From positions 141,501 through 205,500 of the forward strand of contig LBQD01000001.1 of assembly GCA_000990585.1 (NCBI GenBank): a stretch of 64,000 bases of DNA, written 5' to 3'. Both the position numbers and the translations under genes were made by a program. The notes below the pieces were generated by a model. That model saw only the letters and a program-made list of their open reading frames with translations. It had not been told where the DNA came from and did no database searches. Shown here one piece after another: positions 11,499 to 19,861 of this stretch; the first letter of the stretch is position 1, and every line of letters starts with the position of its first letter. This stretch comes from Candidatus Moranbacteria bacterium GW2011_GWE2_35_2-. GTDB lineage: Bacteria; Patescibacteriota; Minisyncoccia; Moranbacterales; UBA9337.

Positions 11499-11589
11499 GC
11501 CCAGGTGATGGAATTGGTAAACATAACTAGCTCTTTGGGCTAGTGGGCAGGTAATGCCCCTGTAAGTTCGAATCTTGCCTTGGGCGCCA
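11499..11589 (+). tRNA. tRNA with a long variable arm (type II; Leu/Ser/Tyr class) and encoded CCA. The anticodon is unresolved because the anticodon loop is non-canonical.
   Basis: Acceptor GCCCAGG/CTTGGGC, D-arm ATG-GAATTGGTAAA-CAT, T-arm GTAAG-TTCGAAT-CTTGC, variable arm GGGCA-GGTAA-TGCCC, discriminator G, then CCA. The anticodon stem-loop ACTAGC-TCTTTGG-GCTAGT has C at position 33, or must be read as a 9-nt loop. Confidence 0.5.
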
Positions 11590-11593
11590 GTGA

Positions 11594-11671
11594 ACAGGAA
11601 TAACTCAGCCGGGTTAGAGTGCAACCTTAGCAAGGTTGAAGTCGCGGGTTCAAATCCCGCTTCCTGTTCCA
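11594..11671 (+). tRNA. tRNA (class I, 78 nt, encoded CCA) with apparent anticodon AGC and an A1:U72 acceptor start. Identity is uncertain.
   Basis: Acceptor ACAGGAA/TTCCTGT, T8 A9, D-arm ACTC-AGCCGGGTTA-GAGT, anticodon arm CAACC-TTAGCAA-GGTTG, T-arm GCGGG-TTCAAAT-CCCGC, discriminator T, then CCA. It sits 4 nt after the preceding tRNA. Confidence 0.5.
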
Positions 11672-15080: not shown

Positions 15081-16295
15081 ATGAATATAAAAATAAAAAG
15101 ATTGCGAGTTACGGCAAGCGCTTTTTTTGGAGTGTTGGTTTTTTTGTTTTCGTGTTCGTTTTTTTTCAATATTAAATTCGGATCAGCTGAAGAAATTTGT
15201 TCTTCAGTAGAAGAATGCGACAAAAAGAAAAAAGCTTATGAAAAAATTATTGAGCTTAAACAGGCACAGCAAGCTACTCTTGGAGGACAAATTAATGGAA
15301 TTGTTTCAGAAATCCAAAACGTTGAAAACAATATCGTAGAAAAAGAAAAAAGTCTTGAAGAAATAAACAACAATATCGAAGAATTGATTCGGAAAATCAG
15401 CCAGCAAGAAGAATCAATAAAACTTCAAAAGAAAATGCTTGGCGGATTGCTTCGAGCTTATTATGACTATGATCAACGCAATGTTATTTCTTTGGTTTTA
15501 AACGGAAAAGGATTTTCTGCCGCAAGTAAGAATCAAGATTATTTGACCCAAGCCAGCGGAAAAGTAAAAGAGATTTTATCAAATATCAAATCGCTGAAAA
15601 ATTCTACCGAAGAAGATAAAAAAAAATTAGAAGGGAGTAGGGAAGATATAGTTTCTATTAAAAATGAACTTGAAGAAAAAAATTCATATCTTGAAAGCGC
15701 GAAAGCGCAGAAAAGAAATTTGCTCGCGCAAGTGCAAGGAGATGAGCAAAAATACAGAGAACTTCTTGATATAATTGAAAATGAAATATATGAATTGGAA
15801 GCCGGAAAGATTGCTGATTTAGACAAACTTCCTCCGGCAAAAGGCGGGTACTTCGATTATCCGGTCGGCAGTGTGCGCATTACGCAAGGCTACGGAATGA
15901 CATCATTCGCAAAAGCTGGAGCCTATGGAGGAAAACCGCATAATGGAGTTGATTTCGGGATTAGTTACGCGCCCATATACGCAGCCGGAAACGGAAAAGT
16001 TATCAGCTCCGGCAATAATGGAAAATATGCTTATGGAAATTGGATTGCAATTGATCATGGTGATGGATTGGTCACCTTATATGGTCATTTGAGCAAGAAA
16101 TCCGCTTCCAAGGGGGATAAGGTGAAGAAAGGGGAGAAAATAGGTATTAGTGGAAATACGGGATATTCCACCGGACCACATCTTCATTTCTCCGTCTTTG
16201 ATAAGGATAGCTTTGGAGTTGTTGAATCGAAATATGTCGACGGACTTTATATCCCAACCGGCGCATCAGTAAATCCAATGAGATACCTTGACTAG
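15081..16295 (+). CDS. M23 family metallopeptidase with N-terminal coiled-coil (EnvC/NlpD-like)
   Basis: HNGVDFG...IDHGDGLVTLYGHLS...GNTGYSTGPHLHFSVF, the M23 LytM catalytic motifs. A long coiled-coil precedes them. Confidence 0.85.
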   Translation: MNIKIKRLRVTASAFFGVLVFLFSCSFFFNIKFGSAEEICSSVEECDKKKKAYEKIIELKQAQQATLGGQINGIVSEIQNVENNIVEKEKSLEEINNNIEELIRKISQQEESIKLQKKMLGGLLRAYYDYDQRNVISLVLNGKGFSAASKNQDYLTQASGKVKEILSNIKSLKNSTEEDKKKLEGSREDIVSIKNELEEKNSYLESAKAQKRNLLAQVQGDEQKYRELLDIIENEIYELEAGKIADLDKLPPAKGGYFDYPVGSVRITQGYGMTSFAKAGAYGGKPHNGVDFGISYAPIYAAGNGKVISSGNNGKYAYGNWIAIDHGDGLVTLYGHLSKKSASKGDKVKKGEKIGISGNTGYSTGPHLHFSVFDKDSFGVVESKYVDGLYIPTGASVNPMRYLD

Positions 16296-16365
16296 TTTTC
16301 ATTACATCCCTTTTTATTCTTCGTGTATTCAAAATTTCTTTTTAATAAAAAATATCGCAAATGAG

Positions 16366-16380
16366 TTGTGCGACATTGTG
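16366..16380. repeat. Left copy of a 14-15 bp direct repeat, TTGTGCGAC(A/G)TTGT, flanking ORF 16441..17076
   Basis: TTGTGCGACATTGTG here, TTGTGCGACGTTGT at 17100..17113. Confidence 0.55.
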
Positions 16381-16382
16381 TG

Positions 16383-16400
16383 TAGGGTATATCTACCCTA
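16383..16400. promoter_or_regulatory. Perfect 7-bp-arm palindrome, TAGGGTA-TATC-TACCCTA, 40 bp upstream of ORF 16441. Candidate operator.
   Basis: The arms TAGGGTA and TACCCTA are exact reverse complements around a 4-nt spacer. Confidence 0.35.
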
Positions 16401-16440
16401 TCGAGAAGAGTGGAGAAACAAACAATAGAGAATAATAAAA

Positions 16441-17076
16441 ATGAAAAATAATAAAATTTGGACACTTGAAAAAGTAAAAGAAGGTTTTGAAAAGTTTTAT
16501 AGTACCTATAATAGATATCCTACTGCATATGATATTGATGATTTTAATTTCCTGCCATCGTCAAGACAAATCCAAAGAAGCTTTGGCGGTTTAGTTAAGC
16601 TAAGAAAAATACTAGAATTAAAAATTGAAAATTATGGAAACGGGAAATCCAGATCTCGGCTAGCACATAATTCAAATATACTGGGTAAAAAATGCGAACG
16701 CATAGTATTGGAGTTATTAAAAAATAAATTCGATGAGAAATTTGTACATATAGAAAAACCAGTAGAAGGGGATTATAAAAATCGCTTTGACTTTTATGTA
16801 TATGCTAAACCTAAAAATTTTGCAATTGATGTTTTTGGAAGTGATGATACTAGGAATCTTGTGAATAATTTCAATATAAAAGAGAAAAAATATTTAAAAT
16901 CAAATAACGAAAAGGAATCTTTGTATTTTATTTATATTGGAGACAAAATAAATGAAAGTAAATTGGCTATTTGGTATCAAAAAAAGAAATCTAAAATACC
17001 AAAAAATTGGAAGATTATAAGTCTTAAAGAATTAAAAAAGGAAATGAATAGGTATGAGGCTTATCGCGCTATATAG
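16441..17076 (+). CDS. Hypothetical protein in an AT-rich island. The C-terminal half has weak PD-(D/E)xK-nuclease-like features. The call is tentative.
   Basis: RFDFYVYAKPKNFAIDVFG and an upstream ExK-like stretch (HIEKPVEGDYK) loosely fit a restriction-endonuclease-like fold. The N-terminal domain (TAYDIDDFNFLPSSRQIQRSFGG) is unrecognised. Codon usage is more AT-rich than the neighbouring genes. Confidence 0.35.
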   Translation: MKNNKIWTLEKVKEGFEKFYSTYNRYPTAYDIDDFNFLPSSRQIQRSFGGLVKLRKILELKIENYGNGKSRSRLAHNSNILGKKCERIVLELLKNKFDEKFVHIEKPVEGDYKNRFDFYVYAKPKNFAIDVFGSDDTRNLVNNFNIKEKKYLKSNNEKESLYFIYIGDKINESKLAIWYQKKKSKIPKNWKIISLKELKKEMNRYEAYRAI

Positions 17077-17099
17077 TATCAAACTTCGTGAAATCTACA

Positions 17100-17113
17100 T
17101 TGTGCGACGTTGT
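17100..17113. repeat. Right copy of the direct repeat TTGTGCGAC(A/G)TTGT flanking ORF 16441..17076
   Basis: TTGTGCGACGTTGT. Pairs with 16366..16380. Confidence 0.55.
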
Positions 17114-17379
17114 TAATTTAGCGCAAAAGCGTACTCTCTACTCTTTTTAAATAAAAAATTAAAAGAAATTATTTTTACAATTTGTTTTTGAGATATATTA
17201 TTTATTCTTTTTTTATAAAAAGTTTTCTGTAAAATAAATCAACCGCTATCTCATCTTAATTATTTTACTAATAGAAAAAATTATCTATATAAAATAAAAA
17301 TAAAAAAAGGCTCCCCTTTTCGGAATATTTCTATTCCTATTTCAGAGAACCCAAGTAAAACTATCTTTTTTGCTGTTTT

Positions 17380-17646
17380 TTATGTGGGGATTATACTAAC
17401 CACTCCACTGCAACAGGCTGAACTTGTATTTAATACGTACTGTTTACCGTTAAGAGAGCATAAACCCTCTTTTTTTGATTTACAGCATAAACACAAGTGT
17501 CGTCCGCGTGTTGCCATGAAGGCATGTGAGCATTCGGCACTGAAGGTAGTGCCTTGAATTTTGCCATAGATAACTCCCTTTTTTAAACAGGAGGGGTTAT
17601 CTTCCTGAATAATTTGAGCGACACAATATAATTGTTCTCTGCTCAC
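17380..17646 (-). CDS. Cysteine-rich small protein (9 Cys in 88 aa; GTG start), encoded immediately downstream of iscU in the isc operon
   Basis: AAGGAG RBS 6 nt upstream of the GTG. Cys residues clustered as ...CLCC... and ...ACCSG.... GC content is higher than the flanking non-coding DNA. Confidence 0.45.
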   Translation of the reverse strand: MSREQLYCVAQIIQEDNPSCLKKGVIYGKIQGTTFSAECSHAFMATRGRHLCLCCKSKKEGLCSLNGKQYVLNTSSACCSGVVSIIPT

Positions 17647-17728
17647 TTTCTTCTCCTTTTCTTTTTTTAATAAGAAAACAACGCACCAAAAAGAACCACC
17701 TCCACCATACCCTATTTAACCAAAAAAG

Positions 17729-18115
17729 TCAAGCTTTACAGGATTGGTATTTTTTGATGGCTTTTTGCAGGGCTGTGGCGGCAAGATTGCTGCAATGAAA
17801 TTTTGGCGCTGGAAGTCCCCCCAGTTCGTCGGCTACCATTTGATTGGTAATCGCGAGGGCCTCTTTCAAGGTCTTACCCTTGGCCATTTCTGTGGCCATA
17901 GACGATGTGGCAATCGCTGCTCCACAACCCAAAGTTTCAAATCCAATATTTTCAATTATTTCCTCTCCCCCTTTGTTTTTTCCAACCTTAATATAAATCC
18001 GCATAATGTCTCCACATTTCGGATTGCCAACAGTCGCCACCGCATCAGCATCCTTGAGTGGTCCCTGATTGCGCGGCTTGGCAAAATATTTCAAAACTTT
18101 TTTTGAATAATTCAT
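17729..18115 (-). CDS. iscU: Fe-S cluster assembly scaffold IscU/NifU
   Basis: GNPKCGDIMRIYIKV...GFETLGCGAAIATSS...KFHCSNLA: the three conserved scaffold Cys motifs. Confidence 0.85.
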   Translation of the reverse strand: MNYSKKVLKYFAKPRNQGPLKDADAVATVGNPKCGDIMRIYIKVGKNKGGEEIIENIGFETLGCGAAIATSSMATEMAKGKTLKEALAITNQMVADELGGLPAPKFHCSNLAATALQKAIKKYQSCKA

Positions 18116-18175
18116 TTTAAAATTTTTAATTTCTAATTTCTAATTTTTAAACAATTTTCAAATATAAAAAATTAA
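18116..18175. repeat. AT-rich dispersed repeat (AATTTCTAATTTCTAA...TAAACAATTTTCAA family) in the iscS-iscU intergenic region
   Basis: Closely similar to the segment at 953..1040 inside ORF1. More distantly related to the inverted arms at 35091..35182. Confidence 0.45.
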
Positions 18176-18199
18176 AAACAAGAAATCTTTATAAAATAT

Positions 18200-19429
18200 T
18201 TATTTAAATTCACTCAAAACATTTCCGGAAATTTTTCGGAGCCTTTGGACAGTTTCTTTGAGTACTTTAACAGTCCTGTCCAGTTCCGCTTTTGTGGTAT
18301 ATTTCCCGATGGTTATGCGCAAACTTCCATGCGCTTGTTCATGCTTAAGTCCCAACGCCAAGAGTACGTGAGATGGCTCAAGCGCCCCGGATGAACAAGC
18401 ACTGCCGGTTGAAGTGGCGATTCCTTCCAAATCCAAAGAAAGAATAAGTCCCTCCCCTTCCACATTATCAAAACGAAAATTAGCATTATTCGGTGAACGC
18501 TTTTCTTTTGAACCATTCAGATATGCGGCGGGAATTTCTGTTAATACTCGTTTAATCAAATAATCCCTTAGTGAAATAATCTTTTTTATTATTGCTTGCT
18601 GTTTACCACTAGCTGTTAGCATATCAACTGCCTTCCCTAGTCCGACAATTCCCGTAACATTGTGAGTTCCGGCGCGGAGTTTGTATTCTTGATCGCCGCC
18701 ATCTTGAATTCTGCGAATCGGCGTACCTCTTTTTGCAAACAAAACCCCCACTCCCTTGGGACCATATATTTTGTGTCCGGAAAATGAAAGCAAATCCACT
18801 CCAATTTTTTTCACATTGCAATCAAAATAATTTACACTCTGGGTTGCATCGGTATGCAACAATGGATAATGAATTCCTTGATTGTTACTTCTCAATTTTT
18901 GGATTAATTTTCCAATTTCCGCAATTGGCTGGACTGTTCCGATCTCATTGTTCACATACATAATTGAAATCAAAATTGTATTTGGCTTGATCGCTTTTTT
19001 GACATCCGCAATTTTCACAATTCCATCCCTCCCTACTGGCAAAAAAGTAATTTCCGCCAAACCTTCTTTTTTCATCGCATGGCAAGCATCCAAAACGCAA
19101 TGATGCTCAAAGACGGTTGTAACGATGTGCGGGATTTCTCCTTTTTTGCGCGAAACGGAATAGAATGATTTTACCACACCTTTAACAGTGAGATTATTGC
19201 TTTCTGTGGCTCCGGAAGTGAAAATTATTTCCGAAGGAGAACAGTTGAAAAATTTTGCCACTCTTTCCCTGGCTGTGTCAATTGCTTGCTGGGCCTCTTG
19301 TCCAAAATTATGCACGGACATTGCATTTCCAAACTTCTCGGAAAAATAGGGTATCATTTCCTTCATTACATTTTTGTCGACTGGCGTAGTCGCCGCATAA
19401 TCCAAATATATTCCCTTATTGTTGTTCAT
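18200..19429 (-). CDS. iscS: Cysteine desulfurase (IscS/NifS, class V aminotransferase)
   Basis: PLP-lysine region SFSGHKIYGPKGVGVL. Active-site Cys in ATSTGSACSSG. Confidence 0.9.
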   Translation of the reverse strand: MNNNKGIYLDYAATTPVDKNVMKEMIPYFSEKFGNAMSVHNFGQEAQQAIDTARERVAKFFNCSPSEIIFTSGATESNNLTVKGVVKSFYSVSRKKGEIPHIVTTVFEHHCVLDACHAMKKEGLAEITFLPVGRDGIVKIADVKKAIKPNTILISIMYVNNEIGTVQPIAEIGKLIQKLRSNNQGIHYPLLHTDATQSVNYFDCNVKKIGVDLLSFSGHKIYGPKGVGVLFAKRGTPIRRIQDGGDQEYKLRAGTHNVTGIVGLGKAVDMLTASGKQQAIIKKIISLRDYLIKRVLTEIPAAYLNGSKEKRSPNNANFRFDNVEGEGLILSLDLEGIATSTGSACSSGALEPSHVLLALGLKHEQAHGSLRITIGKYTTKAELDRTVKVLKETVQRLRKISGNVLSEFK

Positions 19430-19474: not shown

Positions 19475-19861
19475 CTATTTTATTAAATCTTCTAGCGTGA
19501 TATTTTTCAATGTTTTTCTAATCTGAATTCCGAGGGCAACCCAGACTTTTTTTGACCGGCAATTTTTGGAAGTACAATGTGAACTTTCGCATTTCATAAA
19601 CTCCAAAGGACCTTCCAGTGTTTCGATAATTTCTCCGACATTAATTTTTTTCGGTTCGCGCGCCAAAACATATCCTCCCATTTTCCCCTTTTGACTCACA
19701 ACCAGATTTTTTTTGCGCATATATCCCATCAAACGTTCCAAATATTTGAAAGAGATTTTCTCTTCTCCGGAAACATCACTAAGACTCTTAATTTCCGGAT
19801 AGGCATCCGCCAAATTAATAATCGCCCGCAGGCCATATTCAGCTTTAGTCGAAAAACGCAT
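19475..19861 (-). CDS. iscR: Rrf2-family transcriptional regulator (IscR-like)
   Basis: N-terminal wHTH MRFSTKAEYGLRAIINLA typical of Rrf2. Heads the iscS-iscU operon. Confidence 0.75.
   Translation of the reverse strand: MRFSTKAEYGLRAIINLADAYPEIKSLSDVSGEEKISFKYLERLMGYMRKKNLVVSQKGKMGGYVLAREPKKINVGEIIETLEGPLEFMKCESSHCTSKNCRSKKVWVALGIQIRKTLKNITLEDLIK

Follow-up and report, generated by a model that had tools for sequence, protein, structure and literature searches.

Immediately downstream of iscU in a 64,000-nucleotide segment of Candidatus Moranbacteria bacterium GW2011_GWE2_35_2- (GenBank contig LBQD01000001.1, positions 141,501 to 205,500; hereafter the window, to which coordinates without a locus prefix refer), a member of the Candidate Phyla Radiation (CPR) of bacteria, lies an open reading frame (ORF) of 88 codons that is confirmed by the ORF list at 17380 to 17646 on the minus strand. 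It starts with GTG at 17644-17646, its product contains nine cysteines, and its GenBank label is hypothetical protein US44_C0008G0035. Upstream on the same strand are the Rrf2/iscR gene (19475-19861), iscS (18200-19429) and iscU (17729-18115), all three confirmed by Pfam, and 82 nt separate iscU from the small ORF; its other neighbours are a 211-codon ORF (ORF211), an M23 peptidase gene, gltX and a gene for a PD-(D/E)XK protein. A first-pass annotation made from the sequence described a GTG-initiated, 88-residue, nine-cysteine ORF directly after iscU on the same strand, which it did not name as plus or minus, preceded by AAGGAG and richer in GC than the AT-rich DNA around it. The protein sequence that it quoted is the one encoded, the AAGGAG lies 6 nt upstream, and GC is 0.37-0.47 at the locus and falls to 0.14-0.24 in the AT-rich spacer that follows it on the 3' side. 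Shuffling the 431-nt region yields an ORF of at least 88 codons in 2.4% of cases. Comparison with related loci leads us to a reading that, taken as a whole, is probably the best explanation: a taxonomically restricted small-protein gene, carried in an expression unit of its own and seated in a slot whose content is replaceable.

The coding evidence comes from a diverged relative. The 90% identity cluster of IscU contains six variant sequences, and their contigs supplied further diverged loci; two loci, L009 and L010, match the window at 100% identity and hence add no information. In locus L014, where IscU is 92% identical, a full-length homolog lies directly after iscU (L014:2969-3238), with the same GTG start, Shine-Dalgarno (SD) sequence and C-terminus, and matches the 88-residue protein by BLASTP at E=4e-17 with 36% identity and 58% positives. 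The two genes are too diverged for BLASTN (48% nucleotide identity), and tblastx gives an E value of 2e-12 in the 88-codon frame and of at least 0.16 in the other frames. Identity at codon positions 1, 2 and 3 is 0.55, 0.64 and 0.39, such that third positions are at chance level and second positions are the most conserved. The proportion of nonsynonymous differences (pN, 0.43) is below that of synonymous differences (pS, 0.70; Fisher p=4e-4), and the ratio of nonsynonymous to synonymous substitution rates (dN/dS) is about 0.3 with dS saturated. In the window, an in-frame extension of the ORF further upstream is blocked by a stop codon. Because the L014 homolog is full length, in the same frame and diverged by protein-type substitutions, the 88-codon frame is very probably a genuine protein-coding gene of restricted taxonomic range. 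The first-pass annotation had likewise taken the frame to encode a real protein, and had named an unconserved frame with neutral substitutions as the contrary outcome; L014 presents the opposite, the frame being kept with pN below pS.

The window protein and its L014 homolog form what we refer to as family A, a new family of small proteins with two members and a restricted taxonomic range. A word-indexed search of 5.8 billion (5.8e9) protein clusters matched the 88-residue product only to itself, and an exhaustive HMMER search of 1.84e9 cluster representatives matched that protein and the L014-type protein, P0129, so that of about 15 billion predicted proteins these two are the known members of family A. 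A further HMMER match, P0130 (894 residues, 11 matching stretches), is a degenerate tandem-repeat translation aligned on a Cys/Lys/Ser-rich segment and was set aside as a low-complexity artefact. Between window and L014 the family A protein is 38% identical whereas the neighbouring proteins are 76-92% identical, and by this measure it evolves several-fold faster than its neighbours. Conserved residues include C8, C20, C39, C55 and C63 together with H41, which accounts for five of the nine window cysteines and all five of those in L014; the CLCC and ACC clusters are found in the window copy and not in L014.

The gene is preceded and followed by elements that together resemble a complete transcription unit, listed here in the order in which they would be transcribed.

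17727..17732, minus strand: -35-like hexamer TTGACT found by consensus scan, overlapping the iscU stop codon TGA (17729-17731), in block AAAGCTTGACTTTT, which is invariant in 8/8 loci
17704..17709, minus strand: -10-like hexamer TATGGT, 17 nt after the -35-like hexamer and within the invariant block TAGGGTATGRTG
17659..17703, minus strand: putative 5' leader with the motif GTTCTT..GG..TTTTT and a weak A-U hairpin, UUUUCUU/AAGAAAA, just before the SD sequence
17653..17658, minus strand: SD sequence AAGGAG, 6 nt before the GTG
17380..17646, minus strand: coding sequence of the family A protein, GTG start, TAA stop at 17380-17382; a basic product (isoelectric point, pI, 8.8) with nine cysteines, five of them conserved, and H41
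17309..17351, minus strand: two-tier terminator hairpin, with outer stem GGUUCUCU/GGGGAGCC, an internal loop and the inner hairpin GGAAUA-GAAA-UAUUCC
17291..17308, minus strand: U-rich terminator tail, UUUUUUUAUUUUUAUUUU, read from the sequence

Across the eight loci compared, the order AAAGCTTGACTTTT, 13 variable nt, TAGGGTATGRTG is maintained, giving TTGACT, a 17-nt spacer and TATGGT or TATGAT. The hexamers match the promoter consensus at 9 of 12 positions, the box is unique in the 64-kb window, and it is invariant where third codon positions of the neighbouring genes are 54-76% identical. It is equally conserved in loci in which a pilin-like gene replaces iscU as the upstream neighbour and, since it is invariant whichever gene lies upstream, it appears to be selected in its own right. 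Most simply, it is a sigma70-like promoter, a function suggested by its conservation and its match to the consensus, and the 88-codon gene probably has a promoter of its own. The ORF had been described as appended to the isc operon; its position after iscU stands, and a mere appendage it is not, with a conserved promoter-like box overlapping the iscU stop codon. We found no terminator between iscU and the small ORF, so that read-through from iscU is possible, and the family A unit can probably also be transcribed from iscRSU.

The leader is partly conserved in the eight-locus alignment, and its A-U hairpin appears in the minimum free energy (MFE) fold. An SD sequence of GGAG type stands ahead of the small ORF in 8/8 loci. 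Of the 48 ORFs of at least 200 codons in the window, 15 show an identifiable SD core 4-10 nt upstream of a possible start, 33 have no clear SD and none has the full AAGGAG. SD-led initiation thus seems exceptional in this genome, which is why the strong SD of the slot genes stands out. Downstream of the gene, all eight loci fold into a hairpin (-17 to -27 kcal/mol) followed by a T-run. In the outer stem 98.4% of cells are paired and three loci show a switch between U-A and C-G, and the inner hairpin is swapped for other perfect hairpins in other lineages; 17291-17351 is accordingly a conserved, predicted intrinsic terminator. The proposed expression unit would therefore comprise a sigma70-like promoter lying over the iscU stop codon, a leader of about 50 nt, a strong SD, the GTG and 88 codons, and a two-tier terminator.

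The unit occupies a slot between iscU and the M23 peptidase/gltX block in which three kinds of ORF are found, each behind a GGAG-type SD. Family A is present in the window and in L014. Family B, of 73-80 residues, is present in L006, L012, L013, L016, L017 and L018, and has dN/dS values of 0.05-0.09, reflecting strong purifying selection. Family C is present in L015, and is a 91-residue protein with a single cysteine and a normal codon score (0.21); the antisense ORF preferred by a gene caller in L015 does not score normally. Pairwise hhalign comparisons of A with B, A with C and B with C found no homology (probability at most 1%), and all of the slot proteins are small and basic (pI 8.8-10.3) without hydrophobic N-termini. 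Conservation downstream of iscU, which the first-pass annotation proposed as a check, is thus seen in L014, where the homolog belongs to family A, and the other relatives carry unrelated ORFs. The more distant loci L004, L005, L007 and L008 have no comparable ORF after iscU, with L004 and L005 ending about 70 nt beyond it.

Relationships among the flanks do not follow those of the cargo. L015, with family C, has iscU and M23 genes 92-93% identical to those of L016 and L017, which carry family B; L006 combines A-type flanks with B cargo, and its M23 gene is 87% identical to that of L018 while the 5' flank is 57% identical. L016 and L017 are 99% identical in iscU and 100% identical in M23, with 5' flanks 89% identical, yet their family B genes (L016:1153-1377 and L017:1142-1366) differ with a dS of about 0.40 and a dN of 0.03. 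The divergence between these two is localised to the slot and indicates either import of an allele by recombination or mixing of strains in the assemblies. Because flanks and cargo give conflicting relationships, we infer that cargo has been exchanged by recombination, and the comparisons indicate cassette replacement in which the cargo recombined and the regulatory flanks were kept. In the scenario that we propose, the promoter and terminator would stay in place, and recombination would bring a gene for one or another of three unrelated kinds of small basic protein between them. That the locus is both an independent expression unit and a site of slot replacement we regard as likely.

Insertions have altered this segment further. 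In five loci (L006, L012, L013, L016 and L017) a pilin-like gene stands between iscU and the slot; it encodes 194 residues with an N_methyl motif and sits in the 3' end of iscU (L006:1824-2480, L012/L013:2893-3477, L016:422-1006, L017:423-1007). The insertion changes the IscU C-terminus from ..KKYQSCKA to ..KKYKNIK or KKYKIKK(IF), and in L006 a duplicated iscU 3' fragment of about 70 nt lies between the pilin gene and the promoter box, close to the latter. Two independent assemblies of the Athens0714_25 lineage are both interrupted in the interval from iscU to the slot; L004 and L005 end about 70 nt after iscU, and L018 and L019 start about 240-300 nt before the family B gene. Either a repeat, formed by the duplicated iscU 3' end around the pilin-like insertion, or a mixture of strains that differ at the slot would fit these breaks. 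The family B loci also have a leader hairpin of their own, GUUUCCAC-GAAA-GUGGGAAC (L012:3560-3580, L016, L017, L018:243-262), both arms of which are changed in L016 to GUUUCUAU-GAAA-AUAGGGAC; this covarying hairpin is absent from the window and L014 leaders.

Scans with the flank motifs recovered the L006 contig alone from genome contigs and nothing in two scans of metagenome contigs, and blastn searches of phage and plasmid collections gave no match. When the six-frame translation of the window was searched by hmmsearch with profiles of Hfq and of families B and C, no other copy emerged.

Two types of known system invite comparison. Orphan small-protein genes resemble the 88-codon gene in encoding fewer than 100 residues, in being confined to a very narrow clade, and in having atypical codons, uneven gene calls and a 'hypothetical protein' label, but this gene differs in having conserved dedicated flanks, common to unrelated small genes in sister strains. 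The slot therefore predates all of the genes found in it and is better conserved than they are. Hotspot cassettes and phage 'morons' are likewise monocistronic promoter-gene-terminator units placed between core genes, with variable and mosaic content. Morons and islands, however, are gained and lost as entire units, regulatory parts included, whereas here the promoter and terminator persist and the ORF alone is exchanged, and there is no integrase, attachment (att) site, or similarity to phage or plasmid DNA.

Such patterns might also be expected if the slot genes were components of genetic conflict, as in anti-phage defence or anti-defence, toxin and immunity, or host-symbiont interactions, with divergence driven by frequency-dependent or diversifying selection. 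The slot-gene dS of 0.40 between L016 and L017 inside flanks that are 99-100% identical, the 38% identity of family A among neighbours at 76-92%, the three unrelated cargos between conserved regulatory flanks, and the plasticity of a segment with a pilin-like insertion and with ORF211 present or absent all fit this explanation. However, the unit holds no partner gene such as a toxin or an enzyme, dN/dS is below 1 in families A and B with no positive selection seen at this resolution, and the phage and plasmid DNA collections are without a match, as are PADLOC and PHROGs apart from a weak PHROG match of P0129 (E 0.029). We consider a role in conflict unlikely.

Several observations weigh against the reading of a restricted small-protein gene in a replaceable slot, and most of them concern the intrinsic properties of the ORF. 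A codon-usage model trained on 44 window genes scores the ORF at -0.026, a value that falls in the lowest 1.3% of real-gene windows and well within what spurious shadow ORFs give; cysteine makes up 10% of its residues as compared with 0.7% genome-wide; and on identical DNA three gene callers gave three outcomes (88 residues, 45 residues in another frame, or nothing). The minus-strand fold of the coding sequence has a z-score of -4.5, whereas 24 control windows taken from real genes have a mean of -0.3 and a minimum of -2.2. In addition, the coding evidence is one diverged homolog with dS saturated, family C is known from one sequence, and the AlphaFold2 model of family A, built on two sequences, is all-beta with a predicted local distance difference test score (pLDDT) of 56 and has no Foldseek fold match. 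Codon usage is not decisive here, because the clearly constrained family B genes score low too.

The first group of these observations would be explained if the locus specified a structured non-coding RNA, either derived from a 3' untranslated region or independent, with the 88-codon ORF an accident of GC-rich, hairpin-rich sequence. The minus strand of 17300-17730 folds with a z of -5.3, as compared with -2.8 to -2.9 for the plus strand, the locus is a GC island in AT-rich DNA with its own promoter-like box and terminator, and the odd codon usage, Cys-rich product and disagreement of gene callers are all as expected for a spurious frame. Comparison with L006 alone (IscU 92% identical), in which only the flanks are conserved and the middle is a different 73-codon ORF, in fact led us to favour this explanation, which was overturned by the loci from IscU cluster members. 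The L014 similarity lies at the protein level and in this frame only, with conserved SD and GTG, and the chance-level third positions and best-conserved second positions are those of a coding sequence. The structure conservation index (SCI) on the codon alignment is 0.24. Rfam gave no match at E<=1 within 16000-19000 and none near the locus at gathering thresholds in the whole window, and ARAGORN found no tRNA or tmRNA at the locus; RNase P RNA, tmRNA and 6S RNA, suspected from the GC island and the fold z-scores, were ruled out by these negatives. A non-coding RNA is accordingly highly improbable.

The competing 45-codon frame, chosen by the caller of the Joint Genome Institute (JGI), lies at 17430-17567 on the minus strand, with a GGGAG-N7-ATG of its own that is hidden within the 3' arm of a hairpin at 17569-17601. 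Its first nine residues (MAKFKALPS) resemble an alternative frame in L014 (MGKLRELPS), and the similarity ends after 13 residues (tblastx E 0.16). We rejected it as a gene; it is a by-product of the nucleotide stretch that is best conserved in the 88-codon gene.

Coding does not preclude structure, and selected structure in the family A mRNA is a live possibility that is compatible with the frame being translated. The transcript would then serve a dual purpose, its fold being selected, for instance, because it stabilises the message, controls translation or lets the protein regulate its own synthesis. With the same shuffling, the window and L014 sequences have z-scores of -4.2 and -5.6, each with an MFE of about -80 kcal/mol per 267 nt at a GC of 0.40 although their DNA is 48% identical, and the family B and C mRNAs are unremarkable (-1.2 to -3.0). 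The consensus fold is better than that of column-shuffled alignments (z -4.3), 9 of 38 pairs are compensatory, and hairpins fall on corresponding codons, in one of which both arms are replaced. The consensus z is, however, inflated because each of the two sequences, which are all that is available, folds well alone; the hairpin registers are 1-4 nt apart; and the SCI of 0.24 compares with 0.26-0.75 for ordinary genes of the same genome pair, these being far less diverged. On balance we think a selected mRNA structure rather unlikely.

The position of the gene suggested a different interpretation to the first-pass annotation, which offered an Fe-S carrier or chaperone peculiar to this lineage, or else a peptide that binds metal, and such a protein might work with IscS and IscU. 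It adjoins iscRSU on the same strand with no terminator between, it is small and cytoplasmic, and it keeps five cysteines and one histidine across 38% identity. Nevertheless, the comparison with Fe-S carrier families that the annotation proposed gave no match to NfuA, IscA, ferredoxin, metallochaperone or any other family in Pfam, NCBIfam and the Protein Data Bank (PDB). CxxC, CGC and CxxCxxC are all absent from the 88-residue protein. As regards A-type carriers (IscA/SufA/ErpA), there is no Fe-S_biosyn match, and CGC occurs in neither family A protein; as regards Nfu and ferredoxins, the 88 residues contain neither the CxxC of NifU_C nor a CxxCxxCxxxCP motif. There is also no conserved co-occurrence with iscS and iscU across relatives: sister strains with near-identical IscS and IscU (IscU 92-95%) fill the slot with unrelated proteins, one of which, family C, has a single cysteine, the pilin-like gene parts the slot from iscU in five loci with the promoter kept, and distant relatives are without a comparable ORF after iscU.

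Known isc accessory genes, such as those for IscA and other A-type carriers, Nfu, the ferredoxin Fdx, IscX and HscB, are broadly conserved. The 88-codon gene resembles them in its place after iscU, its strand and its conserved cysteines, but it has no recognisable family or motif, has its own probable promoter, is interchangeable and separable from iscU, and is restricted to two lineages. Adjacency to iscU thus looks positional rather than functional, and participation in Fe-S assembly or metal binding with IscS and IscU is very unlikely. The carrier or chaperone proposed by the first-pass annotation finds no support in this exchangeable, separately promoted gene; its suggestion of a metal-binding peptide fares better, as the protein may bind metal through the five conserved cysteines and H41; the striking CLCC and ACC clusters are not conserved.

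Those clusters, within a total of nine cysteines, are also what gave appeal to a ribosomally synthesised and post-translationally modified peptide (RiPP) precursor, the last proposal of the annotation, or to a metallothionein-like peptide. CxC and CC clusters are absent from L014, where only dispersed single cysteines are kept; the similarity to L014 extends along the whole length with no pattern of leader and core; and the neighbouring genes include no maturation enzyme, protease or transporter. Bacterial metallothioneins of the SmtA/BmtA type are defined by conserved CxC and CC clusters, and the window copy is like them in being small and about 10% cysteine with some histidine, but differs in that its clusters are not conserved in the L014 homolog and in the absence of a Pfam metallothionein domain (no Metallothio_Pro match). 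The absence of conserved Cys clusters largely refutes both ideas, and we see scarcely any prospect of either being correct.

Searches for a function of the slot proteins themselves were mostly negative. Pfam, NCBIfam, PADLOC and PHROGs contain no family for A, B or C, other than the weak P0129 match already mentioned. A PDB sequence match to the repeats of Clostridioides difficile Toxin A (E 0.0074) has no single significant stretch, is uncorroborated and was treated as noise, and Foldseek matches of the low-confidence family A model were discarded as meaningless. Family A has no signal peptide or membrane segment. In contrast to that model, family B is confidently predicted to be an Sm/Hfq-like small beta-barrel, in which an N-terminal helix is followed by five bent strands and for which the best Foldseek matches are bacterial Hfq structures; the Sm1 and Sm2 sequence motifs were not found in family B. 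By hhalign, families A (probability 0.2%), B and C show no homology to an Hfq alignment assembled by hand. The link to Hfq and Sm-like proteins is therefore one of predicted fold in an alternative occupant of the slot, together with the small size and basic charge of all slot proteins.

From these properties we tentatively propose, as a possibility that is less probable than its negation, that family A is a metal-stabilised binding or regulatory accessory factor. It would be a small, basic, cytoplasmic and predicted beta-rich protein, in which C8, C20, C39, C55, C63 and His41 would coordinate a metal ion or cluster with a structural role. As an accessory factor it would bind nucleic acids or serve in regulation, and would not be a part of Fe-S assembly. 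The steps from conserved cysteines to a metal, and from a basic beta-rich protein to nucleic-acid binding, are ones that we infer. A bolder extension, to which we give little credence, is that the iscU-M23 slot is a dedicated, strongly expressed locus for small basic RNA-binding beta-barrels, Sm/Hfq-like in family B, also in C, and Cys/His metal-stabilised in A, such that the cargos would be structurally analogous and unrelated in sequence. The exceptionally structured A mRNA would then contribute to how the locus works, for instance by being bound and regulated by the protein that it encodes. Were this extension correct, CPR bacteria, for which, to our knowledge, post-transcriptional regulators are essentially undescribed, would possess a hyper-variable locus for RNA chaperones. 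A literature search on Moranbacteria small proteins found no papers.

At this locus a genuine small gene falls short in the customary intrinsic tests and is rescued only by a diverged syntenic relative, and this urges caution in the automated filtering of small ORFs from CPR genomes. It also removes a tempting and unsupported annotation as a new Fe-S accessory factor. The slot is of modest interest for how ultra-small CPR genomes diversify, with flanks kept and unrelated small basic proteins exchanged between near-identical strains, and its promoter, SD and terminator make it a compact natural expression cassette for these uncultured bacteria.

Among other features of the window, we note that ORF211 (16441-17076, plus strand) is convergent with the small gene and is without a match in Pfam, NCBIfam, PADLOC or PHROG. 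It is kept at 68% amino acid identity in L015 and is absent from L014, L006, L012, L016 and L017, and is therefore another variable element of the segment. Further along the window, ARAGORN predicts a 91-nt tRNA-Lys(UUU) at 11499-11589 (plus strand) with a long variable arm, a class-II-like form that is odd for Lys, and for which Rfam gives no tRNA match at its gathering threshold. The adjacent tRNA (11594-11671, plus strand) is called as Ala with the anticodon AGC, whose A34 is unusual in bacteria, and its acceptor stem has A3:U70 in place of the G3:U70 of Ala identity.

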